Assembly (NCBI GenBank): GCA_964244115.1
Contig: CAXTHM010000013.1
Span: forward strand, 1,035-65,034
Reading direction: 5' to 3'
DNA from: an uncultured Thermomicrobiales bacterium
Lineage (GTDB): Bacteria; Chloroflexota; Chloroflexia; Thermomicrobiales; UBA6265
Length of the DNA stretch: 64,000 nucleotides
The position numbers and the translations under genes are program-made. Shown one piece after another: positions 160 through 62,485 of the stretch (the first letter of the stretch is position 1; each line of letters opens with the position of its first letter). The notes beneath the pieces were generated by a model, which was given only the letters and a program-made list of their open reading frames with translations, was not told the DNA's origin and did not search any database.

Positions 160-1221
160 ATGAACACGCCAGACCCGACGCTCAACGGCCACAGTCACGG
201 CCAGGAGCCGCACCACGATCTCTACGACGTCACCATCATCGGTGCCGGTCCGACCGGCCTGTTCTCGGCCTTCTACGCCGGGCTCCGTGGCGCCCGCGTC
301 CAGATCATCGACTCCCTGGAGGAGGCCGGCGGAGCGCTGACCGCGATCTACCCGGAGAAGTACATCTACGACGTGATGGGCTTCCCGCGGGTGCTGGCCA
401 AGGACTTCGTCGAGCAGTGCCTGATCCAGTCCCGGCGTGGCGACCCGACGGTGCGCCTCAACGAGGAAGTCCGCGAGCTGGAGCGGATGCCGGACGGCAC
501 GATCCGGCTCGGGACGACCCGGGCCGACCGGTTCAGCAAGTCGGTCATCATCTGCGCCGGCGTCGGCGCCTTCGAGCCCAAGCGGCTCGAGACGCCTGGT
601 ATCGGCGATTTCGAGGGCCACGGCGTCCACTACTTCGCCAAGCGGGTCGAGGACTTCCGGGACAAGCACGTCGTCATCGTCGGCGGCGGCGACTCCGCGG
701 CGGACTGGGCGGTAACGCTCGAGCCGGTCGCCAAGCACGTCACGCTCGTCCACCGCTCGAAGTTTCGCGCCCACGAGTCGACCATCGCCGAACTCGAAAC
801 CTCGGACGTCGACCTCCGCTACCCTGGCTGCGAGATCGTCGCGGTGGGCGGCGATGCGACCGGGCATCTCTCGAACGTCACCTATCGCGATGCCGGCGGG
901 ATGGAGACGACGATCCCGGCCGAGGAACTGATCGTCGCGATCGGCTTCGTCGCCGACCTTGGCCCCCTGAAGACCTGGGGCTTCGATCTGCAGCGCAACC
1001 AGATCGTGGTCGACCCGATCACGATGGCGACGAACATCGCCGGCGTCTACGGGGCCGGCGACATCGTCGCCTACCCCGCCAAGTTCAAGCTGATCGCCAC
1101 CGGCGCGGCCGAGGCCGTCACCGCCGTGAATCACGCCATCACCCACATCGACCCGCGGGCCCGCCTCGACGCCGGCCACTCCACGACGATCATGGAGAAG
1201 CGTGAGAAGGCGACCCGCTAA
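160..1221 (+). CDS. Ferredoxin-NADP+ reductase, thioredoxin-reductase-like flavoprotein (YumC type)
   Basis: Within ORF 64..1221. FAD dinucleotide motif DVTIIGAGPTGL and a second motif VVIVGGGDSA. ATG at 160 is preceded by AAGGAAG. Strong GC3 bias. Confidence 0.85.
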   Translation: MNTPDPTLNGHSHGQEPHHDLYDVTIIGAGPTGLFSAFYAGLRGARVQIIDSLEEAGGALTAIYPEKYIYDVMGFPRVLAKDFVEQCLIQSRRGDPTVRLNEEVRELERMPDGTIRLGTTRADRFSKSVIICAGVGAFEPKRLETPGIGDFEGHGVHYFAKRVEDFRDKHVVIVGGGDSAADWAVTLEPVAKHVTLVHRSKFRAHESTIAELETSDVDLRYPGCEIVAVGGDATGHLSNVTYRDAGGMETTIPAEELIVAIGFVADLGPLKTWGFDLQRNQIVVDPITMATNIAGVYGAGDIVAYPAKFKLIATGAAEAVTAVNHAITHIDPRARLDAGHSTTIMEKREKATR

Positions 1222-1244
1222 GGCGGTTGTCCGGGAAGGACCCC

Positions 1245-1392
1245 ACGGCGGAGCAGGTTCACCCCAGCCGGGGTGAACCCGCTCGCTCACCCGCCCCATG
1301 CGGCGCTCGCTGCCCGGCGGCTTCGCAGGTGCCCGGAGCGGGGAGCACCTCTCGCTTGCTCTGACGCACCAAGCTTCAACCCGGATTCCGTA
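1245..1392 (+). repeat. Intergenic structured repeat, X-type, copy 1 (left end truncated, right TIR present)
   Basis: Shares blocks with the copies at 17533, 44658, 60244 and 61970: GGCGGAGCAG, CGCTCACCCGCC, GCAGGTGCCCGGAGCGGGGAGCA and CACCAAGCTTCAACCCGGATTCCGTA. Contains the hairpin GGTTCACCCC-AGCC-GGGGTGAACC at 1256-1279. Confidence 0.7.
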
Positions 1393-15811: not shown

Positions 15812-16504
15812 ATGAGCGATTCGACGAATGAGAACGCCCAGAACCCGATCCTGGCTGGCAGCGACGCGCCGGTTGCCCCGGACACCGCGCCGGAGACAGT
15901 CAGCGCCGAGCTGCTGACGGACGACGAGGCGGCCGTCGTCGGCTCCGTCGCGTCCCCCGGTGAGGCCGCCGACACGACGGACGACGCCGAGACCCTCGCT
16001 CCGACCGCCGCCGTCGCGTCGGACGACGCCGAGACCATCGCGCTGGCGGCTGTGGATGCGACGGGCGACGCCGAGACCATCGCGCCGACCGCTGTCACGC
16101 TGCCGGTCATGGCCGCGCCGGGACAGGGCAAGCGCTCGGCGGACCGCTCGAAGCGCGGGCCGATCCGCCCCGAGGGACCCAAGCCGCTCGGCCACTACGC
16201 GGTAATCGAGACCGGGGGCAAGCAGTACCGAGTCAGCGTCGGTGACCGGATCGCCGTCGAGCGGCTCGAAGGTGACGAGGGGTCCGAAGTCACCCTCGAT
16301 CGCGTACTGATGGTCGGCGGCGACGGAGCTCCCCAGATCGGGGCTCCGATGCTGGACGGCGTCGCCGTCACCGCCACGATCGAGAACCAGTACCGGGGCG
16401 AGAAGATCATCGTCTTCAAGATGAAGCCGAAGAAGCGCTACCGTCGTCGGACCGGCCATCGCCAGAACCTCACCCGTCTGTCGATCACGGCCATCAACGC
16501 CTAG
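15812..16504 (+). CDS. rplU: Ribosomal protein L21 with a long acidic repeat-containing N-terminal extension
   Basis: C-terminal 105 aa YAVIETGGKQYRV...KKRYRRRTGHRQ is canonical L21. The upstream 125 aa keep GC3 bias and contain three DDAET(L/I)A repeats. An alternative start at the ATG around 16109 would shorten the extension to about 29 aa. Confidence 0.85.
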   Translation: MSDSTNENAQNPILAGSDAPVAPDTAPETVSAELLTDDEAAVVGSVASPGEAADTTDDAETLAPTAAVASDDAETIALAAVDATGDAETIAPTAVTLPVMAAPGQGKRSADRSKRGPIRPEGPKPLGHYAVIETGGKQYRVSVGDRIAVERLEGDEGSEVTLDRVLMVGGDGAPQIGAPMLDGVAVTATIENQYRGEKIIVFKMKPKKRYRRRTGHRQNLTRLSITAINA

Positions 16505-17455: not shown

Positions 17456-17475
17456 TCACTGCAACTACGACCAAC

Positions 17476-17519
17476 GAGAGCGGGACCGGCCGATGGCTGG
17501 TCCCGCTCTCGTCGTTTTT
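17476..17519 (+). terminator. Intrinsic terminator after rpmE
   Basis: GAGAGCGGGACC, 11-nt loop, GGTCCCGCTCTC, followed by GTCGTTTTT. Confidence 0.75.
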
Positions 17520-17532
17520 CCGCTGGACGGCG

Positions 17533-17655
17533 TTGCTCCCCTCTCCGGGCACCTGCGGAGCCGCAGCACAGCGAGCGCCGCGTGGGGCGGGGGAGCCAAG
17601 CAGGTGAGCCGGAGAGAGGTCTCGCTTCGCTGGGGGAAGCAGTCTGCGCCGCCAC
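17533..17655 (-). repeat. Intergenic structured repeat, X-type, copy 2 (reverse orientation, no TIRs seen)
   Basis: TTGCTCCCCTCTCCGGGCACCTGCGGAGCC...GCGAGCGCCGCGTGGGGCGGG...GTCTGCGCCGCCAC is the reverse complement of blocks in copies 1 and 4. Confidence 0.65.
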
Positions 17656-17680
17656 CGCGCGACGTTCGACAAGACACGCC

Positions 17681-18607
17681 TTACTCCGCTACCGCATCCG
17701 AGGCGGTATGTTGGCGGGATGATGACGCCCGGAAGCCCCGGAGTTGCCCGAGGCGCATGTTGCTCATCATCGCCGCCGAGGCGAGGATGACGGCGAACCC
17801 GACGAATGTGCCGAGCGAGAGTCTCTCGTCGAGCAGCAACGCGCCCCAGAGCACCCCGAAGGCCGGCGTGAAGTAGGTGGCGATGTTGGCCCGGAACGGA
17901 CCGATCCTCCGCATCAGGCGGAAGAACAGCAGGTAGGCCACCCCGGTCGTGAACAGGCCCAGCCCGAGTACCGACAGGATCGCCTCGTCCGACGGGCGGG
18001 ACGCCGGGACGGTGGCGGCGGCGAACGGCAGCAGCACCACGGCGGCCGTCAGTTGCTGCATGATCGGGATCGCCACTCCCGCCTTGGTCCGGAGCATCCG
18101 GGCCGAGTAGTGCGTCCCGATGCCGTAGCACAGCGCGGCCCCGACGACGGCGGCGATCGAGAGGATGACGCCGAGACCAAACGTCAGCGGCGTCCAGCCG
18201 ACGAGCAGGACCACCCCGCCCAGACCGAACGTGACTCCGGCCATCTGCCGGCCCGACAGCGGATCGCGCAACCAGACTCAGCCGACCAGGGCGGTGAAGA
18301 CCGGGGTCGTCGCGATCAGGATCGAGGAGATGGATGCGGGTAGCTCCGTCGCCGCGAACGAGATCAGCGTGAACGGGATCGCCGTGTTCATCGTTCCGAG
18401 CAGCAGGTACTGGCGCCAGCGGGTCCGGATGTCGAGGCTGATCCCACCCGGCAGCGCGACGGCGAGCAGCAGCAGTCCACCGATGATGACCCGGAGGTCG
18501 GCGACCGGCACCGGGTTGAACTCGGGGGACGCCACCCGCATGAAGAGGAACGACGCGCCCCAGAGCGCGCCGAGCGTGAACAGACCAGCGATGTCGATCG
18601 GCCGCAT
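17681..18607 (-). pseudogene. EamA/DMT-family transporter interrupted by one in-frame TGA (18278-18280)
   Basis: ORFs 18278..18796 and 17681..18271 are in the same frame and read ...TPVFTALVG*VWLRDPLSGRQMAG.... Together they give about 10 TM segments, typical of a two-EamA-domain protein. Confidence 0.7.
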
Positions 18608-36242: not shown

Positions 36243-36692
36243 GTGGCGGAGCAGACCTATCCTACGATCCCTTCCCCGCTCATACGGAATCCGGTTGAAG
36301 AGCCGTCATTCTCCCGAAGCCAGTCGGTAGCAGACCTCTCCCCCGACCCCTCTCCGGCTCGGCTCGTCGCTCACCCGCCAAAGGCGGCTTCGGCTCCTCA
36401 CCGCCCGGAGAGGGGAGTCCTCACCCGGATTCGGTATCACCTCCAGCGCGGTTCATAGCGGTTGACGGTGGAGCGAGCTCCCCCTCTCCATCCGGTCCGG
36501 ACGGAGTCGCCCGCAGGTGACGGAGGCGAACCGAGATGGGGAGGGAGTCGGGGGGTGGGGCTGACCGCTCGCGCCGACGAGGGCCATGAGATCCGCTCTA
36601 GTGGTCTGTCAGGGCTCATCGGCTTCCCCGGAGTTGACCTCTCCCCCGAGGGGTCACGAGTCCACCGACCATCTACCCGGATCCGGTATCAG
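36243..36692. repeat. Composite array of intergenic repeats (an X-type element with TIRs plus a Y-type hairpin module)
   Basis: GTGGCGGAGCAGACC (36243). TIR CATACGGAATCCGGTTGAAG (36281-36300) and its partner CACCCGGATTCGGTATCAC (36422-36440). Y module at 36461-36598, matching 62120-62258. Terminal TACCCGGATCCGGTATCAG (36674-36692). Confidence 0.7.
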
Positions 36693-38588: not shown

Positions 38589-38712
38589 CGCAGGGAGCCG
38601 ATGACAGGCGGCGGTGAGGTCCTCCCCAGGCCGCACGAAACGCGTCACTCCGGCCCACCACTCCCCGCTCGTCTCCGTCCCATCGAGTCAGCCTCGTTCA
38701 CGGGAGTCCGTC

Positions 38713-41031
38713 ATGGCGCGCGAATGGCAGCCTGCCTCGTCCTACCGTCTCACGCCGAGCGACGTCGACGAGTTCGCCGGATCGCACCTGGCACTGGCCC
38801 ATCCGGTCAGCCGGAACTGGTCAGCAGCCCGCGGTGCCGTGCTCTGGGAGGGCGCCGTCGATCTGGCGGGGAGCTTCCCCGGCTTCGCCAGTTGGGGAAG
38901 CCGTGCCCGCTCCGTTCGTCTGACACTGACCGACCGATTCCTGCTGGTCGACGAGGAGACGGAGTACGGCTTCGGTCTCCCGATAGGCTGGCTGTCGGCA
39001 GCCCTGGCGCTGACTGGCGTCGAGCCGATCGCCCTAGAGACAGGCGATCACCTCCGGGTCTGCTATCTCGACGGTCACCAGGTCCGCGGGTTCTCGCTCC
39101 GGGTCCAGGGTGGCCGCTTCGGCAGCCGGTCGGGTCGCCGGGCCAACCAGTTCCGGGCCGCGGCGATCTCACTGGGACTCGCCTCCCCGACGTCGTACCC
39201 CGATCGGCTCCTTCCACCCGAGCACGATCTGTCACTGGGGTGGGATGCCTTCGCGTCATATGAGAGCGAGCCGGTGATCTGGTCGGGACGGGCCGCGATG
39301 CCCATCGGCAGCGGGCTGGAATCGGCCCTCTGCGATGTCTGGCTGACGAGCGCTTCGCTGATCTGGGCGGCGACGTCACGCGCCGGGATCTACCGGATCG
39401 CGACCGGATCGCTCGCCGGGATCACCACAGCCGAAACCCCTGGCCACGAGCCGGTGATCTACTGGACCGTCGACGCGGCCGATCAGACCTACGTCGATCT
39501 CCCGATGATCTTCGGGCGTCCGAACCGTAACGACCCGGACCCGGCAACCCGGGAATCCCTCATCGACCTGCTCGAGGCGCGCGGACACCGCATCGCCATC
39601 CCGGCCAGCCCGCCACAGCCCTGGCGGGCCGTCACGGCCTCCGTCGAGCTCGCCGAACCGACGGTCATCCCGCTGGACGCCGAGATCCCGACCCTGGACA
39701 CCAGAGGCCAGCCGGAGTCCGAGCAGAGTGGGACCACCGATGCCGGTCAGCCAGGGTCCGGCGGCGCGATCAGGCCTGTCGATACCGGGAGACGCCGGCT
39801 GATGGATGACGGTCTCTTCGCGGAGCGCGTGCCTTCGACGCTGCCACCCTCGACGCCCCGACCCTGGGGCGAGCGCGTGGAGCGGGTCAGGGAGGACGTT
39901 TCGGCGGCGAGGACCTCCGAGGAGATGGTCGCCCGTCCGAGCGACCTCCGCCAGCCGCCACTCCCGCCCGGCTCGGTCGTCGATCGGCTCCGGATCTGGT
40001 CCCCCACCGCCACCCATCGGCAGGCGCCCCCGTCTGGCCGAGACGCGACCGCGATGCTGGTTCGGCGTCCGCGCGTCCGGGCAACGACGACCGAGGAGTT
40101 CCTTGCCTCCGAACAGGCCGCGCACGCCGCCAGGTCGGCGGGTATCGCGGCTTCCTCGATCGAAACCGCTCCCGATCCCCGGTCATCCGCCGCTCGACCC
40201 ACCCCTCCGGACCGCGGCGTCATCGTCAGCTTCCGCCGTCCGCGGACCGCGGTCGCCGGCCTCGCGGAGACGGTTCACCGCGCCGAGGGAACAGCGGCGG
40301 CGCGATCGACCTCGTCCTTCGCCACCGTGGGGGGTGCGAGGGCGGCTGGAACCGGCGTCGCGTCCGGGACGGCGGCCGGCCAGCCGAAGGGTGGTGAGTC
40401 GAACGCGATCGTCTCCGACGCCTCGTCGGGCGTTGATCTGGATCTCCCCTCGTCAACGCGGGATGCCTGTGACGCGCTCGGGGCGCCGGAGCGGTCCGGG
40501 CGACCCCTCCCCGGCGCAGCCACGGAAGCGGCTTCGGATCCGCAGGTGTCCGCGGAGGGGAGCCGCCAACCCGACCGTGATGTGGCCACCGACCGGGACT
40601 CCGCTGCGATGTCGCCCGATGCTGCGGTCACCGAGGCACCCTCCGGAATCGGCCAGTCCGTGCCGGACACATCGGCCTCGAATCGACCGACCCATCTGCC
40701 GATCATGCGGTCCGCCCTGTCGGCGATCGACGCGCAACTGCTGATCGCGATGCGCGCGACATCGGGTCCGGCGATTCCGGCCGGTGAGACGGCGATCGCG
40801 GCGACCGCCCCGTTCCTGGCCGAGGCGCTCGTCGAACTCGATGCGGCCGTGTCCGAAGGCGAGTTGGCGCCGAGCGCGGCCGAGACCCACCGCCACGCGA
40901 TGACCCGCTCCGCTGACACGACCGAACGCCTCCGGTCGCTACTGGAGCTCCATGCCCACGGCTACCTGTCGGCCGCAGACCTCGATCGGCGATGCACAGC
41001 CCTGCTCGGTCGCGCTGGCATCCTGAGCTAG
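38713..41031 (+). CDS. Hypothetical 772-aa protein with a structured N-terminal third, a long disordered P/S/A/R-rich middle and a SHOCT-like C-terminus
   Basis: ATG at 38713 with GGGAG upstream. The C-terminus ERLRSLLELHAHGYLSAADLDRRCTALLGRAG resembles the SHOCT short C-terminal domain. No other family recognised. Confidence 0.6.
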   Translation: MAREWQPASSYRLTPSDVDEFAGSHLALAHPVSRNWSAARGAVLWEGAVDLAGSFPGFASWGSRARSVRLTLTDRFLLVDEETEYGFGLPIGWLSAALALTGVEPIALETGDHLRVCYLDGHQVRGFSLRVQGGRFGSRSGRRANQFRAAAISLGLASPTSYPDRLLPPEHDLSLGWDAFASYESEPVIWSGRAAMPIGSGLESALCDVWLTSASLIWAATSRAGIYRIATGSLAGITTAETPGHEPVIYWTVDAADQTYVDLPMIFGRPNRNDPDPATRESLIDLLEARGHRIAIPASPPQPWRAVTASVELAEPTVIPLDAEIPTLDTRGQPESEQSGTTDAGQPGSGGAIRPVDTGRRRLMDDGLFAERVPSTLPPSTPRPWGERVERVREDVSAARTSEEMVARPSDLRQPPLPPGSVVDRLRIWSPTATHRQAPPSGRDATAMLVRRPRVRATTTEEFLASEQAAHAARSAGIAASSIETAPDPRSSAARPTPPDRGVIVSFRRPRTAVAGLAETVHRAEGTAAARSTSSFATVGGARAAGTGVASGTAAGQPKGGESNAIVSDASSGVDLDLPSSTRDACDALGAPERSGRPLPGAATEAASDPQVSAEGSRQPDRDVATDRDSAAMSPDAAVTEAPSGIGQSVPDTSASNRPTHLPIMRSALSAIDAQLLIAMRATSGPAIPAGETAIAATAPFLAEALVELDAAVSEGELAPSAAETHRHAMTRSADTTERLRSLLELHAHGYLSAADLDRRCTALLGRAGILS

Positions 41032-42119: not shown

Positions 42120-44657
42120 ATGAGTTCAGGCCGGATCACCCGTGCCCGCATGCGTCACCCGTCCGCCCGGCGCCGCGCCGCGATCTATTCCCGCAGCCAG
42201 TACGGCACCCGGCTCCGCTCCCTGCCGCCGCACCTCCTGCCCGGGGTCTCGGGCCGCGGGCAGAAGCGGTCGCGCAAGCTGCCCATCTTCCTCGTCGCCT
42301 TCGCCCTGGTCGGCATCGCGTTCACCGCCGTCGCGGGCGTCGCACTGACGGCCTCGTCAGCAGTCGGCGTCAACATGACCATCGACGAATACCAGGACGT
42401 GACCGGCTCCCTGCCCGACGCGGAGAACATCTTCTCGGAGACGTTCCAGACCACCCGGATCTATGACCGGGACGGGAACCTGCTTCAGGACGTCGACGAC
42501 CCCAACGGCTACTGGCGGACCTTCGTCCCCTACGACCAGATCTCGCCCGACCTCGTCAACGCGACGATCGCCGCCGAGGACGCCACCTACTGGACCCATG
42601 AAGGGGTCGAACCGATCGCGATCGTCCGCGGCGCCTTCATCATCTTCACCGGGGCCGGGTCGTCCGGCGGTTCGACGATCACCCAGCAGCTCGTCCGCGC
42701 GCTCTACCAGGAGGAGATCGGCAACGACTACGCCGTGTCGCGCAAGGTGCGCGAGGCGATGGCGGCCATCAAGCTGAATCAGGACTTCACCAAGACCGAC
42801 ATCCTGACCATGTACCTCAACCAGATCTTCTACGGGCAACGCTCGTACGGGATCGAGGCGGCCTCGGTGATGTACTTCGACAAGCACGCCTCCGAGCTGG
42901 ACCTGGCCGAGGCCTCGCTGCTGGCCGGCATCCCGCAGCTCCCGACCGCCTACAACCCGGTCGTCAACCTCGACTTCGCCAAGCAGCGCCAGGAGTACGT
43001 GCTCGACCAGATGGTCAAGCTCGGCTACACGACCCGGGCCGAAGCCGACGCGGCGTTCGCGGAGACGCTGAACATTCGCGGCGATCGCTCCGGCCAGGTC
43101 CTCGACGACCCGCACTTCACCCAGTACGTCCGCGAGTTCATCACGCAGAAGTACGGCGAGGACGCCCTCTACCGCGGCGGGCTCCGGGTCTACACCTCGA
43201 TCGACAGCGAGCTCCAGGACGCCGCCGAGCAGATCGTGCAGGAGGGTGTGGCGGAGGCCGGGCCATACAGCGTCTCGAACGGGGCGGCGGTGATCGCTTC
43301 GCCGGACACGGGCGAGATCCTGGCGATGGTCGGTTCAGCCGACTTCGACGACCCGCTGATCTCCGGGGAGGTCAACATGGCGACTTCCCCGCGACAGCCG
43401 GGCTCGACGATGAAGCCAATCGTCTACGCTGCCGCCTTCGAGCAGATGCACTGGAACCCCGGCACGGTCCTGCTCGACACCCCGTTCGAGCGCCCGACGG
43501 ATGATCCGAACGAACCATACGCTCCGGGCAACTTCACAGGAAGCTTCTATGGGGCGGTTACCATCCGGACAGCACTCTCCAACTCCCTGAACATCCCGGC
43601 TCTGAAGGCTGCCGACAATGTTCAACCGTCGGCCGTCATGGAGATGTCGACCCGCCTCGGCAACTCGACGCCGTTTCCTGAGGACGCCAATTACTACGGT
43701 TTACAGATCGCCCTGGGTGGTGCCGAGATCCCGCTGGTCGACATGGTGAACTCCTACGCCACGATCGCGAACGAGGGCAGGTACGTCCCCTTCAACCCGA
43801 TTACGAGGATCGAGGACGCGCAGGGCAACGTCCTCTACCAGCTCGACCCGGCGACGTCGCTCACCAACGCCCCGCAGGTCCTGCGGTCCGAGTACGCCTA
43901 CCAGCTGATCGACATCCTGAGCGACAACCAGGCCCGGCAGATGCTGTTCGGGCAGGGCAACATCGCCGAGACGACCCAGCAGGCGCTCGGTCGGCAGATG
44001 GGCACCAAGTCCGGTACGACCAACGACGTCAAGGACAGCCTTCGGATGGGCTTCACGACGGCAGCCGTCGTCGGGGTCTGGACGGGCAACACGGACACCT
44101 CGCCGATGCAGCCGACGCCCGGCAATATCGGGACCGACGCGATCTGGAGCGAGCTGATGCTCCTGATCCACCAGGACCCGCGCTTCACGGACCTGATCGA
44201 GGACGCCGGCGGCAACGCCTACCCGTCGGACTTCGCCCGGCCCGAAGGCATCTACGAGGGGCCGGTCTGCGCCGGGACGAGCCACAACCCCGGTGACGGC
44301 GACGCGACCCGGACCGAACTGCTCGCCCGCGGCAATGAGCCCGTCCTGCTCTGCGACCAGATGTCAGACTGGGAGCAGCGCGACCTGCAGGAGGCCCTCG
44401 ACGGCATCGGCGACCGTCGGCTGGTCGGTGGCGCGGCCGACAGCGTCCGGGAATACGCCAACGAGATCAGCGGCGGCCGGCAGGGCGGCGGTCGCAGCCC
44501 GAGCCAGTCGATCACCTCGACCAACTCCGGCCAGCCCGACCCGAGCGACAGTGGCAACGGGACCGGCAACCCAGCCGGTCCCAGCTCGCCGGCAGATGGC
44601 ACCCAGCCGGGTCAGCAACCGAGTAGCCAACCGTCGATCCAGCCGGTCAACGGGTAA
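42120..44657 (+). CDS. Bifunctional penicillin-binding protein 1A (glycosyltransferase 51 + transpeptidase)
   Basis: GT51 motifs EDATYWTHEGV and GGSTITQQLVR. Transpeptidase motifs STMKP, SNS and KSGTT. N-terminal TM anchor and a low-complexity C-terminal tail. Confidence 0.9.
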   Translation: MSSGRITRARMRHPSARRRAAIYSRSQYGTRLRSLPPHLLPGVSGRGQKRSRKLPIFLVAFALVGIAFTAVAGVALTASSAVGVNMTIDEYQDVTGSLPDAENIFSETFQTTRIYDRDGNLLQDVDDPNGYWRTFVPYDQISPDLVNATIAAEDATYWTHEGVEPIAIVRGAFIIFTGAGSSGGSTITQQLVRALYQEEIGNDYAVSRKVREAMAAIKLNQDFTKTDILTMYLNQIFYGQRSYGIEAASVMYFDKHASELDLAEASLLAGIPQLPTAYNPVVNLDFAKQRQEYVLDQMVKLGYTTRAEADAAFAETLNIRGDRSGQVLDDPHFTQYVREFITQKYGEDALYRGGLRVYTSIDSELQDAAEQIVQEGVAEAGPYSVSNGAAVIASPDTGEILAMVGSADFDDPLISGEVNMATSPRQPGSTMKPIVYAAAFEQMHWNPGTVLLDTPFERPTDDPNEPYAPGNFTGSFYGAVTIRTALSNSLNIPALKAADNVQPSAVMEMSTRLGNSTPFPEDANYYGLQIALGGAEIPLVDMVNSYATIANEGRYVPFNPITRIEDAQGNVLYQLDPATSLTNAPQVLRSEYAYQLIDILSDNQARQMLFGQGNIAETTQQALGRQMGTKSGTTNDVKDSLRMGFTTAAVVGVWTGNTDTSPMQPTPGNIGTDAIWSELMLLIHQDPRFTDLIEDAGGNAYPSDFARPEGIYEGPVCAGTSHNPGDGDATRTELLARGNEPVLLCDQMSDWEQRDLQEALDGIGDRRLVGGAADSVREYANEISGGRQGGGRSPSQSITSTNSGQPDPSDSGNGTGNPAGPSSPADGTQPGQQPSSQPSIQPVNG

Positions 44658-44861
44658 TACGGAATCCGGGTAAACGGTTGTTGGCCCCTTGACACCTGGG
44701 TGGCGGAGCAGACCGCTCCCCCAGCAGAGCGAGACCCCGCTCCGGCTCACCTGTTCGCTCACCCGCTGGCTCGGCTCTCGCTGCGCTGCGGCTCGCAGGT
44801 GCCCAGAGCGGGGAGCAGCACCCACCTGCGGTCACGCACCAAGCGTCAACCCGGATTCCGT
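44658..44861 (+). mobile_element. MITE-like full-length copy of the X-type repeat with terminal inverted repeats
   Basis: 204 bp starting immediately after the PBP1A TAA. TIRs are TACGGAATCCGGGT (44658-44671) and ACCCGGATTCCGT (44849-44861). Internal blocks GTGGCGGAGCAGACCGCTCCCC and GCAGGTGCCCAGAGCGGGGAGCA are shared with the other copies. No transposase ORF. Confidence 0.7.
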
Positions 44862-44988
44862 CTAATCGCCAGCGTTCGTCCTGATCTCACAAAACCGCGA
44901 TCGCAGGCAAGCGACGAGCCGCACGCTCATCCCAGCGTGCGGCTCGTCTCATGGCCGAGGAAAGCGTTCTGATCGTGCCGGGAGAGGA

Positions 44989-45597
44989 TCAGGACCGGGA
45001 CGCCGGCTGAACCTTCCGGGAGCCCTTCGGCCGGCCCGGACCTCGTCGAACGGTCGGCTGACCGTCGACCGTCGTAGTCCGGAGTGCCGCGCTGGGTGAT
45101 CCGGTCGCGTCCTCCCGACGGGACAGTCGGGTGCGAACGCGGACGGTGCCGTCCGGCGCGGTCAGTGCCCGCCACGGGACGGGTGTCGACAGGACCAGGT
45201 CGGCGTCGCAGCGAGCGCCCGTCGATCCGAGGGAATCGATCAACGCCTCCAGGGCCGCCGCATCGGCGACATGCGCCTTGAGGATGAAATTCACCAGACC
45301 ACTGGTCCGGTGCGCTTCGACGACACTCGGCTCATCGGCAATGACGGCGACGAAGGCCTCGATCGCCGTTCGATCCACCTCGGCCCGGACGACAGCGGTC
45401 AGCGGTCGGCCGATCGCGGCGGGCGACACGACCCCGCGGTAGCCGGCGATCACGCCGCGCTCCTCGAGGCGCCGGACCCGTTCGATCATCGCCGGGCTGG
45501 AGAGCCCCACATGCTCGGCGAGTGCCTTCATCGTCAGGCGCCCGTTAGTCTGAAGTTCGTCGATGATCCGCTCGTCGAGCGTATCGATACCGGTCAT
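44989..45597 (-). CDS. Lrp/AsnC-family regulator with a basic AT-hook-like C-terminal tail
   Basis: HTH DERIIDELQTNGRLTMKALAEHVGLSSPAMIERVRRLEERGVI and an AsnC ligand domain. The tail contains RRGPGRPKGSRK. ATG at 45597 with GGATGGAG upstream. Confidence 0.8.
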   Translation of the reverse strand: MTGIDTLDERIIDELQTNGRLTMKALAEHVGLSSPAMIERVRRLEERGVIAGYRGVVSPAAIGRPLTAVVRAEVDRTAIEAFVAVIADEPSVVEAHRTSGLVNFILKAHVADAAALEALIDSLGSTGARCDADLVLSTPVPWRALTAPDGTVRVRTRLSRREDATGSPSAALRTTTVDGQPTVRRGPGRPKGSRKVQPASRS

Positions 45598-53282: not shown

Positions 53283-54524
53283 GTGACGCGGCGAGTCGTT
53301 GTAACAGGAGTGGGCGCGGTCTCCCCGCTCGGGATCGGGGCGGAGACGCTCTGGCGAGAATTGCTGGCCGGTCATTCGGGGATCCGGACGATCCAGAACT
53401 TCGACGCGTCCGAACTGGAAGTCAAGATCGCCGGCGAGGTCCCCGGGTTCGTTCCGAAGGACCACATGGATGCGAAGCTGGCCAAGCGTATGGGGCGCTT
53501 CGCCCAGTTCGCGGTCGCCGCGTCGCGCGAGGCACTCGAGAGCGCCGGCCTGACGATCACCGATGACAACCGGGAGCGCGTCGGCATCGTCCTGAACACC
53601 GGCGGCGGTGGCGTGCCACTCATCGAGGAGGAGACCCGCAACTCCCTGGCGAAGGGCCGGCGTGGCGTCGGTCCCTTCCTGATCCCCATGTTCTCGCCGA
53701 ACATGGCCAGTAGCCAGGTCGGCATCAGCTTTGGCATCAAGGGTCCGACGACGACGTCGGTCGCTGCCTGCGCCGCCGGCACCCAGGCGTTCGTCGACGC
53801 CGTCCATACTCTCGAGCGTGGAGACGCCGACGTGCTCCTGACCGGCGGGACCGAGGCCGCGCTCTCGGCGGTCGCGATCACATCGCTGGCCCACATGGGA
53901 GCCCTAAGCCGCTGGGACGGCGACCCCAACGCCGCGAGCCGGCCGTTCGATGCCGAGCGCAACGGCTTCGTCTTCTCCGAGGGCGCAGTCGTGATGGTGC
54001 TCGAGACGGAGGAGCATGCCCTGGCTCGCGGCGCGACGCCGATCGCGATCGCATCCGGCGGTGCCTACACCGCCGATGCGTTCCATATGACCGCGCCAGA
54101 CCCGAGCGGCGAAAGCGCGGCCCGGGCGATGGCGGGGGCCGTCCGGCGCGCCGGGCTCGAGATGAACCAGATCGACTACATCGCCGCCCACGCGACTGCG
54201 ACGCAAATCGGTGACGCGGCCGAGACCAAGGCGATCCGGAAGGCGTTCGGCGCCCACGCCGACGCCCTGGCGATCTCCGCCAACAAGTCCATGATCGGCC
54301 ACCTCCTCGGGGCGGCCGGCGCCGTCTCCGCGATGGCCTGCGTCTTCGCGATCCGCGACGGCCGGATCCCCCCGACGATCAACCTCGAGACGCCGGACCC
54401 GATGTGCGACCTGGACTACACGCCCAACGTGATGCGCGAGTTGCCCGTCCGGGCGGCACTCGCCAACGGCTTCGGCTTCGGCGGCCAGAATGCCTGCGCC
54501 GTCTTCCGCGCCTACGACCGCTGA
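53283..54524 (+). CDS. fabF: Beta-ketoacyl-ACP synthase II
   Basis: RVVVTGVGAVSPLG, AACAAGTQA (Cys), HATATQIGD and GHLLGAAG. Confidence 0.9.
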   Translation: MTRRVVVTGVGAVSPLGIGAETLWRELLAGHSGIRTIQNFDASELEVKIAGEVPGFVPKDHMDAKLAKRMGRFAQFAVAASREALESAGLTITDDNRERVGIVLNTGGGGVPLIEEETRNSLAKGRRGVGPFLIPMFSPNMASSQVGISFGIKGPTTTSVAACAAGTQAFVDAVHTLERGDADVLLTGGTEAALSAVAITSLAHMGALSRWDGDPNAASRPFDAERNGFVFSEGAVVMVLETEEHALARGATPIAIASGGAYTADAFHMTAPDPSGESAARAMAGAVRRAGLEMNQIDYIAAHATATQIGDAAETKAIRKAFGAHADALAISANKSMIGHLLGAAGAVSAMACVFAIRDGRIPPTINLETPDPMCDLDYTPNVMRELPVRAALANGFGFGGQNACAVFRAYDR

Positions 54525-54564
54525 TGGGTCGGCCCACTCCACGTCCCGCCCGTCGAATCCGACC

Positions 54565-54602
54565 CTGACGACGGGCTCCCCAGCCGGGGAGCCCGTCGTC
54601 AG
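54565..54602 (+). terminator. Perfect 17-bp stem hairpin after fabF (no U-tract)
   Basis: CTGACGACGGGCTCCCC-AGCC-GGGGAGCCCGTCGTCAG. Confidence 0.55.
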
Positions 54603-54711
54603 ACCATCGGTATCGCCCGTGACACGCACGCGACGACGCGCACGGATTGCGCGGGTTGCTATCATCGTGGGACGCAGCGCGCCCGACCCCCCGCGGTGCC
54701 CGGAGGCAACG

Positions 54712-55392
54712 ATGACTCAGCGAGACGATCCCTCTGACGACGTGGATACGACCGGCGAGGACCCGAAAGGCTTCGCCCTGCACCGACGCCTGCTGGAGCG
54801 GGACCCCGTGGCCCGACGCCAGTTCTGGAATCGCTATTTCGACGCGCTCGCTCACTATGCGACCAGCCGGATCTTCGACACCGTCAGCCGTGAGGATGCG
54901 GGCCGCACCCTCTCCATGCACGTCATCGAGGCCATGATCGACCGCCCGGAGCGATTCGATCCGACCCGCGGCAAGAGCCTCTACGGCTATCTGATGATGG
55001 ACCTCAAGGGCGACATCGCGAACTACCTCGCCAAGCTCACGCGGGAGCCGCGGCCGATCCGGCTGGACGCACCGATCGGTGGTGACGGCGACGATGTCGG
55101 AAACCAGGACCTGGGTGGGAACCTTCCTTCGGGCGAACCTGGCCCCCAGGAGATCGCCGAATCCGCCGAGAGCCAGGCCCGGGTCGACGCGATCCGGAGA
55201 CGGGTCGTCGAGACGGACGAGGAGGGCATCGTCTTCGACCTGCAGTACGTCGCGGGGGAACGCGCGACCGACGCCTTCGCCACCGCCCTGGGGCTCACCG
55301 GGGTGCCCTCGGGCGAGCAGGCCCTGGTCGTCCAGAAACTGAAGGATCGACTGGCGAAACGACTTCGCCGGATGCGAGAGGACGAACGATGA
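54712..55392 (+). CDS. Sigma-70 family (ECF-like) protein
   Basis: Region 2-like RFDPTRGKSLYGYLMMDLKGDIANYL. Region 4-like IVFDLQYVAGERATDAFATALGLT...LKDRLAKRLRR. GGAGG RBS. The stop overlaps the next ATG (ATGA). Confidence 0.6.
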   Translation: MTQRDDPSDDVDTTGEDPKGFALHRRLLERDPVARRQFWNRYFDALAHYATSRIFDTVSREDAGRTLSMHVIEAMIDRPERFDPTRGKSLYGYLMMDLKGDIANYLAKLTREPRPIRLDAPIGGDGDDVGNQDLGGNLPSGEPGPQEIAESAESQARVDAIRRRVVETDEEGIVFDLQYVAGERATDAFATALGLTGVPSGEQALVVQKLKDRLAKRLRRMREDER

Positions 55393-55874
55393 ACGAGGAC
55401 GCGAACAACGTCGCGACTCGACCAGACGATGACGCGGACGATGAGACGTTCAGACCGACCCCACTCACGGCGGATCAGCTCGCCTGGCTGCGGGATCGGG
55501 CGGCGATCCGGGACTCCGCCCTCGGCAGCCAGCTGCTCCGGTTCCGGGAGCAGGAAGGCTGGACGCACGAACAGCTCGCCGACCACCTCGGCCTGACGCC
55601 CGAGGGGCTTGATCGGCTCAGTCTCTCCGGCCGGCCGCGCAAGGACCGGTTCGCCGCCGATGTCCGGGCCATCGCCGCCGACAGTGGCGTCCCCGACCTA
55701 CAACTGATGCAGCTCCTCCGGGCGGTCGAGAGCCGGGACGCCTTCGTCGGCTCCCAGGCGGCCCGACGGATCGTCGCGGCCGCCCGTGACCACGACGACC
55801 AGACACCATCGCCCGCCGAGCAGCGCCTCCGCGAGGCGAGCGAACCGGAGCAGTCCGAAGACGATCACCGGTGA
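55389..55874 (+). CDS. XRE-family helix-turn-helix protein
   Basis: LLRFREQEGWTHEQLADHLGLTPEGLDRLSLSGRP fits the HTH_3 pattern. Coupled to both neighbours by 4-nt overlaps. Confidence 0.6.
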   Translation: MNEDANNVATRPDDDADDETFRPTPLTADQLAWLRDRAAIRDSALGSQLLRFREQEGWTHEQLADHLGLTPEGLDRLSLSGRPRKDRFAADVRAIAADSGVPDLQLMQLLRAVESRDAFVGSQAARRIVAAARDHDDQTPSPAEQRLREASEPEQSEDDHR

Positions 55875-56590
55875 CCCGAGCGGAACTGGTCGGTGTCGCC
55901 GAGCGATTCTGGTCGCGGTCCGGCATGGAACCGCCCGAGCCGCGCTCGGTCCGGATCGCCATCTCCTGGGTCCACTCCGTCCGCGTCGAGACCCAGCCGG
56001 CGCTGTCGATCGCGACGATCCAGTCCTGGATGGCCGGGCAGGGGTTCACCGTCCCGATCGACGACCCGAACCGGCGGCTGCGCGGCTGCGCGGTCGCCTC
56101 GGCTGGTTGCGGCCTGATCTTCGTCGACGCCAGCGACCCGGCCGATGAGCGCGAGTTCACGGTCGCCCATGAGGTCGCCCACCTCCTCCTCGACTACTAC
56201 GGTCCCCGCGACCACGCGACGGACCTGATCGGTGAGGGTGCCCACGAGGTCTTCGATGGCGCCCGTGACGCGTCGTACTCCGAGCGACTCGCCGCCGCCC
56301 TGCACGGGGAAGCCCTCCAGCCCTTCGTCCACCTCCTCGCCCGCGATGCCAACTTCGTCGCCTCCGCCGCGGTCCTGGCGCGTGAGGCCCTCGCCGACGA
56401 ACTCGCCTGCGAACTCCTCGCCCCGCTGGCGGCCGTCCGCTCCGCCCTCCCGCCCTCCTGGGACCAGGCCGACGCGACCGCCATGCTGGTCAGCCGGTTC
56501 CGCTTGCCCGAGGGCGCCGCCCGGGACTACGCCCGGCGGCTGGCTCACCGCTTCCAGCCCACCCCGACCTTCGTCGACTGGCTTGGCTGA
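55871..56590 (+). CDS. ImmA/IrrE-family zinc metallopeptidase (M78)
   Basis: HEXXH in FTVAHEVAHLLLDY. The downstream EALADELACELLAP matches the family E..A..FA..LL.P block. Confidence 0.75.
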   Translation: MTRAELVGVAERFWSRSGMEPPEPRSVRIAISWVHSVRVETQPALSIATIQSWMAGQGFTVPIDDPNRRLRGCAVASAGCGLIFVDASDPADEREFTVAHEVAHLLLDYYGPRDHATDLIGEGAHEVFDGARDASYSERLAAALHGEALQPFVHLLARDANFVASAAVLAREALADELACELLAPLAAVRSALPPSWDQADATAMLVSRFRLPEGAARDYARRLAHRFQPTPTFVDWLG

Positions 56591-56692
56591 GGCCCTTCAT
56601 CGCCCGGCGACACGGTCTGGTTCCCGTCCCGGCTGGCCGTGCGGTACGCTGACCGGTACGCGAAGGTCCCGACCGTATGACGAAGGCGATGC

Positions 56693-57910
56693 ATGTCGAT
56701 CTCTGGACAGGACTCCGACGGCGCGATCGGCCCCGACGACGGGCTCGACGGTCCGATGGTCGACAACGAGCTGATCGACGACATCGCCTTCCAGCGTGCC
56801 TTCAATGAGCCGCTCGCCCAGACGCTCGACCTGGCGACCTGGCCCCGTGGCGGCGACATGATCGCCCTCTACCATCAACTCGAGCGCGAGATCGTCTCGG
56901 CGGCGCGGGATGAGGAGTCCCACCTCGACGAGATCCGGCGAACCGTCCTGCCGCACCTGAGCCAGCGCCCCAACCGGCCCGAGCAGACCGGTGTCTATCA
57001 CCTGACCCTGGATGATCTCCGCCGGGCGCACCGATCGATCCTGTTCAACGGCGGCGTCGAGGCCGCCCGCGGCACCGTCGCCGCCCACGACACGCTCGCC
57101 CTGACCGTGACCCAGCTCGGCGTCAGCCTCGTCAACTACCAGGGCGACCGCGGGACCTGGGGACACCGCCTGTTCCGGCGTGACCTGCGCTTTTCGGCCG
57201 GGGAGGTCGAGGACCTCGCGCTCCGCGTGATCCGGCAGCGGCAGGCCGGCGCCGCCGAGGACAGCGTCGCCGAGCGCCGGCTGACCCAGCTCGCCAGGCG
57301 GGGAATCCTGATGTACGCCGAGCGGTCCGCCCTGACCGACCAGGCGACGGCCCCCTGGCGCATGGGCTCCGGCACCCCGATCCCGTTCGAACTGGTGACC
57401 GGTGGCGGGAGCATGGAACTGGCGCTGCGGAGCGTCGACCTGCTCGACCGGCTCATCAATGGCCACAGGCGGTTCGTCTTCGTCTCGCCCGACACGCGCG
57501 AGCGCGGACTGATGACGATCGGCCACGCCCTCAAGCCGCTGGAATACGCCATCGTCGACGACGGCCTGCCCCGGCTCCGCTCGCTGGTCGATCGCGCCAA
57601 CTACACCCGGCGCGAACGCGATCGCATCGAGACCTTCATCGCGGAGACCGGCCCGGTCCTGCGTCTTGGGGTCTACCGGGCTTCCGAGATCGGTCCGCCG
57701 CGGCTGTTCTACGGGCATCAGGACCACATCCATGAGGCGGCGCTGGTCGCGATCGCCGATAGTGTCCTGCATGAGCACCGGGCCTTCCCGATGTTGCTGG
57801 ACCTGGCCGAACAGGTCTGCCGCGGGATGTTCCCCGCCAGTGAGCTGGCCGAGACGACCCGACTGGCCTACCTCGATGCCGGAGCGCCCCCGCGCTACGG
57901 GCTCGACTGA
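56693..57910 (+). CDS. Hypothetical protein, NurA-like nuclease candidate (partner of the HerA-like ATPase)
   Basis: 405 aa with GAAGG RBS. The stop lies 11 nt before the HerA-like start. Weak resemblance to NurA blocks (VAAHDTLALT...QLGVSLVNY and C-terminal AFPMLLDLAEQV). The assignment rests mainly on gene context. Confidence 0.4.
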   Translation: MSISGQDSDGAIGPDDGLDGPMVDNELIDDIAFQRAFNEPLAQTLDLATWPRGGDMIALYHQLEREIVSAARDEESHLDEIRRTVLPHLSQRPNRPEQTGVYHLTLDDLRRAHRSILFNGGVEAARGTVAAHDTLALTVTQLGVSLVNYQGDRGTWGHRLFRRDLRFSAGEVEDLALRVIRQRQAGAAEDSVAERRLTQLARRGILMYAERSALTDQATAPWRMGSGTPIPFELVTGGGSMELALRSVDLLDRLINGHRRFVFVSPDTRERGLMTIGHALKPLEYAIVDDGLPRLRSLVDRANYTRRERDRIETFIAETGPVLRLGVYRASEIGPPRLFYGHQDHIHEAALVAIADSVLHEHRAFPMLLDLAEQVCRGMFPASELAETTRLAYLDAGAPPRYGLD

Positions 57911-57921
57911 GGACGAGGACG

Positions 57922-60030: not shown

Positions 60031-60243
60031 GCGCAGCGAGTTCGAAGCGATCGGGTGGACCGTAGGCGACGGTGCGGCCCTGAGGGGACCGGCTGAACGA
60101 CATCGGTGGCGCTCATGGCTGGCCGTTGGGTGGCGTGACGTCACAACGACAATGGTGTCGCAACGAGGCGCAGAGGTCAGTTTGGTTGAGCCGGTCGCTG
60201 GCGGCAGGCTCCAGGCGAAGTCGTCGAACTGCATGGGCGGGTG

Positions 60244-60353
60244 TTGCTCCCCGCTCCGGGCACCGGTGAGCCGTAGCGCGGCGAGAGCCGCCTGTAGCGG
60301 GTGACCGAACAGGTGAGCCGAAGAGGGGCTAGGGGAGCGGTCTGCTCCGCCAC
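60244..60353 (-). repeat. Intergenic structured repeat, X-type, copy 5 (reverse orientation)
   Basis: TTGCTCCCCGCTCCGGGCACC...GGGGAGCGGTCTGCTCCGCCAC is the reverse complement of blocks at 44700-44820. Confidence 0.6.
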
Positions 60354-60673
60354 AATGCAGCTGCAATCACGACCACTCCCACCGGTTGCCGGTGAGACAG
60401 TCCCGCGAACTCGCGATGGTCATGGGTCGTTCGTCGATACCAGGAGGGACCTCTGGATCGGCAAACGGCATTGCTGCCGTTACCGTCATGCTGTCACCCT
60501 GACTACGTTGTCTACCCCGAATGGAGTCGAGACCGGCCGGCGACCGGTGCGGTCGGTGCCCCGTCACAACGCACATGCCGTCAGCGCGTAGCCAGCAGGG
60601 ACCTTCACCAGCGTCCCCAGTCCCGCGACACGTCCGTACGGCGATCTGATGTCCAGCTCGAGGCCGGGATGGT

Positions 60674-61128: not shown

Positions 61129-61938
61129 ATGATCTTCAACACGCCGGACCGGATCAGGGCACTGACGCCGTCGAACCCGTTCGGCCGGATGCCGGACGGT
61201 CGGCCGATGGTTCCGGATGATCTCCTCGAGCGGATGAAGCTCGTGACCAACGACGAGGCCTGGGCGACCATGGAGTCCGGCCACGGCTACAGGTACCAGT
61301 TCTCGGGCGGGTGGTTGAACATGCACCCGGACCGCATCCTGGTCGGGCGCGTCGTCACGGCCCAGTTCGTCCCGATCCGGCCGGACTTCCACGATGTCGT
61401 CGCCGGGATCGGCGAGCGCTAGGGTCGCAGCGGCGGCCAGAACACCTGGGTGATCGACTCGCTCGGCCCCCACGACGTCCTCGTCGTCGACATCTTCGGC
61501 AAGATCCGCGACGGCACGGTGATCGGCGACAACCTCTCGACCGCGATCGCGTCGAAGACGAAGGCCGGCATCGTCATCAACGGCGCCGTCCGGGACTACG
61601 TCCGGATCCGCGAGCTGGAGAACTTCAACGTCTTCCACAAGGGCATGGACCCGACCCCGATCCGGGAGGTGACGCTGGCTGCGGTCAACGTCCCGATCCG
61701 GATCGACGACGTCACCGTCATGCCCGGCGACGTCGTCCTCGGGACACCGGAGGGGATCTCGTTCGTCCCGCCGCACCTTGCCCAGCAGGTCGTCGAGGAA
61801 TCCGAGAACACGCGCCAGCGGGACGTCTTCGGCAAGCTCCGCCTGCATCAGGGCACGTACACGACCGGCGAGATTGACCGGCCAGAGTGGGCCGACCACA
61901 TCGAGGCCGACTATCTGGCCTGGGTGAAGACCAGCTAA
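61129..61938 (+). pseudogene. RraA-like / HMG aldolase-family protein interrupted by one in-frame TAG (61420-61422)
   Basis: ORFs 60649..61422 and 61450..61938 share a frame and read ...DVVAGIGER*GRSGGQNTWVIDSLGPHDVLVVDIFGK...GIVINGAVRD...MPGDVVLG.... ATG at 61129 with GGGGAG upstream. Confidence 0.7.
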
Positions 61939-61969
61939 CGGTCTGGCCCATAGCCACCACGCTGGCGCC

Positions 61970-62103
61970 GAGGCAGGTTCACCCCCGGCCGGGCAGGAAC
62001 CTGCTCACTCACCCGCCCCATGCGGCTCCCCCTGCGTCCCGGCTATCAGGTGGCCGCAGAGGGGAGCCATAACATCTCTTTCGCCTGAGCAACCCGGTGT
62101 CTC
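61970..62103 (+). repeat. Intergenic structured repeat, X-type, copy 6 (degenerate)
   Basis: GAGGCAGGTTCACCCC...CTCACTCACCCGCCCCATGCGGC...CAGGTGGCCGCAGAGGGGAGCC...AACCCGGTGTCTC is collinear with copy 1. Confidence 0.6.
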
Positions 62104-62119
62104 TAGCGCGGCTCATGGA

Positions 62120-62258
62120 GGTCGACGGTGAAACTGCCTCCCCCTCTCCATCCGGGTCCGCCTCCGTCCCCTGCCGGCGACTCCGTCCGGACCCGGATGG
62201 AGAGGGGGCCGGGGATTGGGCTCGCCGCTCGCGAGCGACAAGGACCAGGAGATCCGCT
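62120..62258 (+). repeat. Y-type hairpin repeat module (partner of 36461-36598)
   Basis: The flanks GTCGACGGTG...CTCCCCCTCTCCATCCGG and GCCGCTCGCG...GAGATCCGCTC are co-oriented with the copy at 36461. 19-bp stem, 62139-62157 paired with 62189-62207. Confidence 0.7.
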
Positions 62259-62485
62259 CGAAGCCGCTGGAGAACGTCCCAGACACCGGGGGGTATCCCT
62301 CTGACCGTCCCGTACGCCACGGGTCGGCATCGTCCGGACCGGTTTCCCCGCGCGACCGGTCGGCGAAGCTGCGATCAACCGATCGATCGATGGGAACCAG
62401 CCTGACGACACACCGCGGTCAGCGCGTCTGCGCTGTCGGCTCACCCGGAACAGGGTACGATCGTGGCTGACGGCTGAAGACCATG

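Follow-up and report, generated by a model that had tools for sequence, protein, structure and literature searches.

Bacterial MITEs are shorter than 200 bp, have terminal inverted repeats (TIRs) with 5'-TA-3' at their termini, are flanked by target-site duplications and give rise to transcripts with long stem-loops (PMC2229807). RUP, the repeat unit of pneumococcus, and Nezha, of cyanobacteria, are non-coding elements of ~100-200 bp with inverted termini that insert at TA by means of a transposase acting in trans, and both are found as many dispersed, mostly intergenic copies that nest in one another (PMC2229807; PMC10969869). RUP has been linked to IS630-Spn1 (PMC2229807), and other bacterial MITEs have been found in clusters and fused in frame to genes (PMC10969869; PMC2229807). 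The Correia/NEMIS elements of Neisseria have TA termini, TIRs of ~24 nt and long stem-loop transcripts; they come in two size classes of 107 and 155 bp that differ by an internal segment of ~50 bp, and some copies form in-frame fusions with ORFs (PMC2229807). MITEPsy1 of Pseudomonas syringae is a short TIR element of ~100 nt that inserts at CTAG or YTAA with a 4-nt duplication, and its suggested parent is the IS5-family element ISPsy2 (PMC3189936). A different class is formed by the REP/BIME/REPIN repeats moved by RAYT. These repeats are extragenic, GC-rich and hairpin-forming, lie at gene ends and have been suggested to serve as terminators or mRNA stabilisers (PMC3733652). Each unit is a palindrome of 20-40 nt headed by GTAG or CGTC, and TA is not duplicated.

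Here we describe a repeat family found in a 64-kb stretch of Thermomicrobiales (Chloroflexota) DNA, referred to below as the window. The family shows most of the defining features of TA-targeting bacterial MITEs such as RUP, Nezha and Correia, and is neither a REP/REPIN family, nor a set of intrinsic terminators, nor a curated RNA family. No report of this MITE superfamily was found in the literature searched; the host order is little studied and mostly uncultured. The family differs from RUP and Nezha in having no sequence similarity to them, in being GC-rich where they are AT-rich, in its host, in carrying at least three sets of terminal repeats around one core, and in that its partner IS is presumed. 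It is likewise unrelated to Correia in sequence, phylum and base composition, and no IHF-type motif was recognised in it, although elements with a short core (L138 and L153) and with a long core may be compared, by analogy, to the two Correia size classes. MITEPsy1 is unrelated in sequence and host, and its 4-nt duplication contrasts with one of our end types that fits only a 2-nt TA. Compared to the REP palindrome, the unit here is ~170 bp with true TIRs.

Results

A repeat family in the 64-kb window

A sequence-only reading of the window had listed six related sequences. All six were found in place, and reading of the regions together with alignment revealed a common collinear sequence. A profile built from the six returned just those six from the window in an nhmmer search, with E-values from 1e-20 to 1e-32. 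Dinucleotide shuffles of the window bore out three of the four blocks said to be shared, with 0-0.5 matches expected against 3-6 seen. Block GGTGCCCGGAGCGGGGAGC had 5 matches with at most 3 mismatches against 0.21 expected, block GTGGCGGAGCAGACCGCTCCCC had 3 against 0.00, and block ACCCGGATTCCGTA had 6 with at most 2 mismatches against 0.47, whereas block TCGCTCACCCGC, with 5 against 1.84, is weak taken alone. The window is 69% GC and contains many weak GC-rich repeat pairs, which could suggest that the similarity is a by-product of low-complexity sequence with no true family behind it. This explanation is refuted by the shuffle controls, and it is contradicted by the lowest of the nhmmer E-values and by ~80 collinear copies with defined ends in other genomes; we assign it practically no probability.

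Altogether the window contains nine copies or fragments of the family and two copies of a second MITE family (MITE2). Three of the nine lie beyond the six listed earlier, and one of these three is in frame within a gene. Full-length copies of the family measure 154-205 bp. The elements are as follows (the end types A, B and C are described in the next section).

1219..1392, + strand: c1, core at 1245-1347; nhmmer E 1.4e-26
17517..17683, - strand: c2, core at 17533-17655; nhmmer E 6.8e-29
36243..36282, + strand: c3a, 5' fragment of an older copy (GGTGGCGGAGCAGACC...CCCCGCTCA) split by the insertion of c3b
36283..36436, + strand: c3b, complete type A element of 154 bp; nhmmer E 1.1e-20
36442..36600, + strand: MITE2 copy 1, with type-B-like ends (CAGCGCGGTTCAT.../...ATGAGATCCGCTC-TA)
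36599..36689, + strand: internally deleted family copy; profile search seedC, E 3.2e-4
40453..40608, + strand: intragenic family copy of 156 bp, or 52 codons; profile E 3e-7 and 1.7e-7
44658..44862, + strand: c4, the focal copy, core at 44700-44818; nhmmer E 1.5e-32
60206..60372, - strand: c5; nhmmer E 2e-32, seedB positions 10-163 with E 2.1e-20
61936..62105, + strand: c6, with a form 2 core; nhmmer E 6.2e-23
62104..62261, + strand: MITE2 copy 2, hairpin centre inverted compared to the MITE2 copy at 36.4 kb

The focal copy is 204 bp long, has inverted ends as originally described and follows the PBP1A stop codon (TAA, 44655-44657) directly. Its ends read TA-CGGAATCCGGG ... CCCGGATTCCG-TC. The 13-14-nt TIRs attributed to it are indeed inverted, but the outer TA is best read as duplicated target, which leaves CGGAATCCGGG and CCCGGATTCCG as the repeat proper.

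Most window copies have degenerate arms that can still be aligned to types B and C, and recognisable termini are absent in c2 and c5. In c1 the core has a 5' hairpin variant termed form 2 (GGTTCACCCC/GGGGTGAACC), and the right end is ...CCCGGATTCCG-TA. The right arm of c2 is truncated beside the rpmE terminator hairpin. Copy c5, ~180 nt downstream of the HerA-like gene, consists of a core with degenerate type B arms and has no recognisable terminal TA. The left arm of c6 is related to the type C end, and its right TA is common to c6 and the second MITE2 copy.

What had been taken as one copy at 36.2 kb is a nest of a fragment, a complete element, a MITE2 copy and a deleted copy. The complete element, c3b, ends in TA-CGGAATCCGG...CCGGATTCGG-TA with TCA on either flank, and carries a compact core with a C(UUCG)G loop. 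The cargo hairpin of MITE2 (CCCCCTCTCCATCCGG...) differs from the core of the main family. The internally deleted copy combines a type C left end (TA-GTGGTCTGTCAGGG) with a type A right end (CCCGGATCCGG-TA), and its left TA is shared with MITE2 copy 1. The intragenic copy lies in frame within the ORF at 38614-41031, in a hypervariable linker, and the orthologue of this ORF in the relative L108 lacks the 156-bp copy.

The gene names given in the sequence-only reading agree with Pfam, which identifies the neighbours as pyridine-nucleotide oxidoreductase, L31, acyltransferase, phytoene synthase, HerA/DUF87 and RraA-like. The copy at 17.5 kb, which that reading had placed at rpmE, abuts the minus-strand EamA stop codon instead.

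Three sets of ends around one core

A full copy consists of inverted termini of ~11-25 nt, two arms of ~35-45 nt and a GC-rich central core of ~90 nt. The core folds on itself (CCCCTCTCCGG..CACCTGC / GCAGGTG..CCGGAGAGGGG) and is capped by CCGC-UGAA-GCGG and often by C(UUCG)G. In the copies from metagenome assembly JAABUN01 the ~90-nt core is constant and contains ...GGCGGAGCAGACCTCTCCCCCAGCCCCTCTCCGGCTCACCTGCTCGCTCACCCGCTGAAGCGGCTTCGGCTCGCAGGTGCCCGGAGAGGGGAGCAG...

At least three types of ends were found around this one core. Type B is ~169 bp with 26 full-length copies of the form C-TA-nAGCGGGTTGC...AACCGCTG-TA-G, or more fully C-TA-nAGCGGGTTGCAtgTGAAGCG ... CACcTGAAAACCGCTG-TA-G; its TIR is CAGCGGGTTGCAtgTGAAGCG and the complement. 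Type C is ~174 bp and is represented by eight full-length copies of the form C-TA-GTGGTCTGTCACGG...TGACAGACCAC-TA-G, also rendered as C-TA-GTGGTCTGTCACGGCTGATTGG ... ATGATCGTTGACAGACCAC-TA-G. Type A, with the window copies c4 and c3b, has the form TA-CGGAATCCGGG ... CCCGGATTCCG-TA, and the JAABUN01 elements L138 and L153 combine type A ends with a short version of the core. Three end sequences of the family can be written as TA-CAGCGGGTTGCATGTGAAGCG, TA-GTGGTCTGTCACGGCTGATTGG and TA-CGGAATCCGGGTAAA. Ends resembling type B were also found with other cargo, namely in MITE2.

The termini of a MITE are usually its best conserved part. Among 30 full-length type B copies the mean pairwise identity was 59% for each arm compared to 85% for the core, the latter measured on the 73 core columns outside the search pattern. 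This reversed conservation, together with the presence of one core within three end types, remains odd compared to typical MITEs. We found no co-evolution of the arms within elements; the mean score was 5.0 for a left arm against its own right arm and 4.9 against the right arms of other elements. Conservation of the core may reflect recombination or gene conversion between copies, a role in cis during transposition, or selection by the host. Recombination is supported by the orthologous elements L119/L127 and L147, which have different arms and, in the core, alternative versions of the whole 5' half.

Target site and placement at gene ends

The flanks bear the footprint of insertions that enter CTAG and duplicate its central TA, which is the hallmark of IS630. 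The flanks of type B have TA on the left in 18 and on the right in 14 of the 26 copies, preceded by C in 15/26 and followed by G in 20/26. Among the eight type C copies, seven have CTAG at the left flank and six at the right. In the loci examined, CTAG is ~7 times rarer in coding DNA (0.15 per kb) than in non-coding DNA plus stop codons (1.13 per kb), and 58 of 461 stop codons lie within a CTAG.

Both ends are defined in 37 elements, and in 12 of these a flanking gene's stop codon contains the terminal TA. This applies to six of the eight type C copies, where TA and the first base of the element, G, rebuild a TAG stop, to several type B copies in which the first base is changed to A or G, and to c1 of the window. 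Copy c1 starts in the TAA stop of the same-strand gene that immediately precedes it, its left TA being the first two bases of the reductase stop (1219-1221), and by direct reading the same holds for c2, which on its own strand begins at the EamA stop TAA (17681-17683), and for c6, with its left TA in the RraA-like stop TAA (61936-61938). Contact with a stop codon is thus found for ~32% of the defined elements compared to ~25% of all CTAG sites, so that target availability and loss of gene-disrupting insertions are enough to explain the pattern. With respect to orientation of the neighbouring genes, 30 copies are in convergent, 33 in tandem and 4 in divergent spacers, against a baseline of 85, 274 and 71 such spacers, and 5 are genic.

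The placement of the copies at gene 3' ends can be explained by the concentration of the TA/CTAG target at the stop codons and in the spacers of a 69% GC genome, and this is a simpler explanation than a role as terminators or stabilisers. According to the mechanism we propose, an element would insert into TA, which becomes duplicated, with a preference for CTAG. In this lineage of 66-69% GC, CTAG is seldom found within genes and is concentrated at TAG stops and in spacers; the bias of TA itself is milder than that of CTAG, TA being present in TAA as well as TAG stops. Surviving insertions would then accumulate at gene 3' ends, and the TA would often be re-used within the stop codon.

Nesting, spread and copy number

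Several observations point to mobility. The convergent spacer between the acyltransferase and phytoene synthase genes is 39 bp in the closest relative, L108, whose flanking genes are ~82% identical; the spacer of the window measures 493 bp and is occupied by the nested elements. The two spacers are too diverged to show an insertion junction. Within this spacer c3b sits inside the older copy represented by c3a, and the window, L172 and L143 each have a type C element at the terminal TA of an element resembling type B. The PBP1A downstream spacers of three relatives align too poorly with c4 to define a junction, and the c5 site is likewise unclear.

Homologues of PBP1A place the window in an uncultured Thermomicrobiales genome; a protein with 100% identity is encoded on a 66.8-kb contig, and the matches with names are MAGs of Thermomicrobiales or Chloroflexota. 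A 21-nt core pattern matched 61 metagenome loci, nearly all from assembly JAABUN01, and nhmmer gave 79 matches in these 508 kb of JAABUN01 loci. The loci have no long identity with the window and therefore come from different organisms, and since L119, L127 and L147 are orthologous, JAABUN01 contains at least three related strains. The Thermomicrobiales MAG chromosome L072 has two inverted copies. The family is thus present in at least three Thermomicrobiales lineages. In the closest relative, 22.5 kb of synteny gave no family match at E <= 1. An initial pattern for scanning the genome collection (TCACCCGC N25-55 CCNNAGMGGGGAG) was too loose and gave 107 matches, of which one was real (L072), with L041 marginal at E 7.6e-4. 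The core pattern had no match in viral contigs, and the plasmid collection gave none for a type B copy or for the focal copy. The earlier estimate of hundreds of copies per genome is plausible as an extrapolation from 64 kb.

A probable non-autonomous family and the enzyme presumed to move it

The repeats are likely a non-autonomous MITE family of Thermomicrobiales with a TA/CTAG target and the footprint of an IS630/Tc1-mariner-type (or some IS5-type) transposase. That they are non-autonomous MITEs had been proposed from the window alone, and agrees with the short non-coding units, the inverted termini, the TA flanks, the nesting, the expanded spacer compared to the compact one, the many copies in relatives and the failure to find a transposase among the window's genes. 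No transposase was found by Pfam among the 50 ORFs scanned, which represent the 44 called genes except PBP1A (typed from its homologues). The family copies have no Pfam match and are short, non-coding and bounded by TIRs, as described for bacterial MITEs (PMC2229807). They are dispersed, with positions that differ between lineages, and the type B and C flank counts fit the TA duplication and NTAN/CTAG target of IS630/Tc1-mariner MITEs.

A cognate transposase with the same TIRs, which the sequence-only reading had suggested looking for, was found neither in the window nor in the ~570 kb of sequence examined; searches for an autonomous IS with matching ends by paired TIRs, by unpaired TIRs and by multi-copy segments (>=300 bp) were all negative there. 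An all-against-all blastn of the loci examined gave orthologous regions only, and no multi-copy segment of at least 300 bp fit for an IS. A candidate autonomous element of 1.6 kb between two type-B-like ends in L159 was rejected, as it lies inside the genes for a substrate-binding protein and a gamma-glutamyltranspeptidase. The type of transposase is therefore deduced from the footprint, and the flank statistics together with nesting suggest that TA is a true target-site duplication.

The footprint can also be read as that of IS5-family enzymes, in which case type C would have duplicated 4 bp (CTAG) and type A 3 bp (TNA). CTAG is found on both sides of six of the eight type C copies, the type A copies c4 (TAA/TAA) and c3b (TCA/TCA) have perfect 3-bp flanks, and MITEPsy1, with its suggested IS5-family parent, duplicates CTAG or YTAA (PMC3189936). 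The flanks of type B (CTAn ... nTAG) are inverted and not direct, however, and only a 2-bp TA duplication fits them. The L143 element (TTAG ... CTAC) fits a TA duplication in TTAC with no mutation but needs two changes under the 4-bp model, and the type A elements L138 and L153 lack matching 3-bp flanks. For type C taken alone, a 4-bp CTAG duplication fits almost as well as TA. In type A, two of the four copies agree with a 3-bp TNA duplication and the case is ambiguous; by the example of types B and C, TA duplication is the more likely. We consider movement by IS5-family enzymes unlikely. Transposition by a RAYT (Y1 HUH) rather than a DDE enzyme, which would make the repeats of the REP/REPIN type, is much less probable still. 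The elements are GC-rich, extragenic, hairpin-forming and abundant, and the type B ends CTAC...GTAG recall the GTAG tag of REP superfamilies (PMC3733652). This GTAG is explained by ...G-TA-G, the element end followed by target, and the tag is absent in types A and C. The earlier label REP-like is not supported, since the units are ~170 bp with inverted termini of 11-25 nt and single arms form neither hairpins nor 20-40-nt palindromes. No Y1_Tnp-type protein was seen in scans of the window proteins, and to our knowledge TA flanks are no feature of RAYT-mediated insertion.

The core as a possible RNA element

The copies had also been suggested to act as terminators or mRNA stabilisers, a role which the sequences do not support. 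A related explanation is that the core is a selected cis-acting RNA (a terminator, an RNase barrier or a processing site) and that the transposon-like ends are only its delivery vehicle. The focal copy folds better than shuffled sequence (-102.8 kcal/mol, z = -3.96), but its complement folds about as well (z = -3.49), as is expected of any palindromic DNA. The core has UGAA and C(UUCG)G loops, and its identity among paralogues exceeds that of the arms, as given above. Copies show a mild co-orientation with the nearest upstream gene (42 vs 24, p = 0.036) and are enriched in convergent spacers, and effects on transcripts have been published for ERIC and Correia elements (PMC2229807). On the other hand, no terminator-like site was found at 44400-45200 and the sequence after the core has no T-runs, while rpmE keeps its own terminator, a hairpin with T5 at ~17468-17520 that lies next to c2 but outside the repeat. 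Among 57 cores 94.6% of cells pair, and both partners are changed in seven pairs, compared to 1.4 in shuffles; when 30 full-length copies were analysed with RNAalifold, however, no compensatory pairs were found, and at the two stem positions that vary most the changes are for the most part uncompensated (9 unpaired vs 2 compensated and 21 unpaired vs 2 G-U). The 3' strand of the stem was set by the search pattern, and its apparent invariance is a matter of ascertainment. Selection on the RNA is also at variance with the single orthologous pair found, c6 and a type C element of the relative L173 located after the same RraA-like stop codon, which are 68% identical over aligned positions and have thus drifted faster than the flanking genes (86-87%); this looks like neutral decay. 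Rfam 15 had no matches in the window, and two copies gave chance-level matches only (E > 1). We regard a selected RNA core as improbable, and any effect of the copies on transcripts would be incidental.

Discussion

The TA/CTAG-targeting MITE family described here has a core better conserved than its ends. One way to read this would be that the ~90-nt core has a function of its own, whether as an element for RNA 3' ends or processing or as a DNA hairpin that binds protein and is required in cis, and that at least three MITE shells with different termini captured or retained it and kept it nearly constant while these termini diverged. Transposition would then disperse a regulatory hairpin to stop codons throughout the genomes of Thermomicrobiales. 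This reading builds on the odd conservation of the core, and we consider it unlikely.

The present understanding of transposition is left unchanged by these results. For annotators, the family explains recurrent structured spacers, spurious small ORFs and one in-frame insert of 52 codons. Those studying how MITE families originate may find the reversed conservation of interest, as well as the exchange of ends and cargo among families. The family is a clear example of how a preference for TA/CTAG in a high-GC genome directs insertions onto stop codons, with the type C elements regenerating the TAG stop of the gene that they abut.

Copies and neighbouring genes in the window

The repeat copy near rpmE (c2, 17517-17683, reverse strand) was found to be distinct from the terminator of that gene, a canonical structure lying immediately 3' of rpmE:

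about 17468-17520, GC-rich hairpin followed by T5

Ribosomal protein L21 (gene at 15812-16504, forward strand) is extended by about 125 aa at its N-terminus, and this part holds three tandem repeats of 42 nt each (15955-16092). An extension is present in the L31 ORF as well: of its 164 aa, the domain occupies residues 33-94.

One copy of the main family was located inside a gene:

40453-40608, forward strand, 156 bp or 52 codons, in frame in ORF 38614-41031

The product of this ORF has 805 aa and no Pfam match, and the 52-codon insert lies in a hypervariable, low-complexity linker of the protein. The orthologue from L108, a locus of a relative of the window organism, is 744 aa long and lacks the insert. 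ORF 1642-4383 (reverse strand, 913 aa) is also without a Pfam match and contains 21-nt periodic repeats at about 2336-2706, which correspond to families D1, D3, and D4 of the window repeat search. The gene run 54490-60030 (forward strand) encodes unknown proteins, a protein with a Peptidase_M78 (IrrE-like) domain and a HerA/DUF87 ATPase, and may represent a defence-like cluster.

A second MITE family, MITE2, with type-B-like ends, has two copies in the window:

36442-36600, forward strand
62104-62261, forward strand

MITE2 carries a long hairpin that differs from that of the main family (CCCCCTCTCCATCCGG...CCGGATGGAGAGGGGG), and the hairpin centre has opposite orientations in the two copies. 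At both sites MITE2 is immediately preceded by a main-family copy.

Copies outside the window

A diverged element with type C ends was found in L173, a second locus from a relative:

3489-3690, directly 3' of the TAG stop codon of the RraA-like gene

It is the orthologue of c6, the window copy at the RraA-like stop codon (61936-62105, forward strand), with an identity of just 68% compared to 86-87% in the flanking genes. By eye only, a short-core look-alike, GACGACCCCGCCCTTACCCCGCTGCCGCGGAGCGGGGAG, was spotted 3' of the PBP1A orthologue in L108 (about 12640-12740); the profile derived from the window copies gave no match to it.

One copy (L113, about 1735-1905) has the 14-bp direct repeat CTGTAGGCCGTCTG on both sides, and in L141 4313-4520 and L132 964-1100 the 3' half of the core and the right arm are partially duplicated internally.

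Three orthologous copies were found in an operon-like spacer of the JAABUN01 metagenome strains:

L119, 4904-5071
L127, 6326-6493
L147, 1609-1773

Each occupies the whole spacer, from the stop codon of one gene to the ribosome-binding site of the next. Since the core of the L147 copy has the alternative form 2 in its 5' half, and its arms differ from those of L119 and L127, the sequences suggest that replacement or gene conversion took place at this fixed orthologous site.
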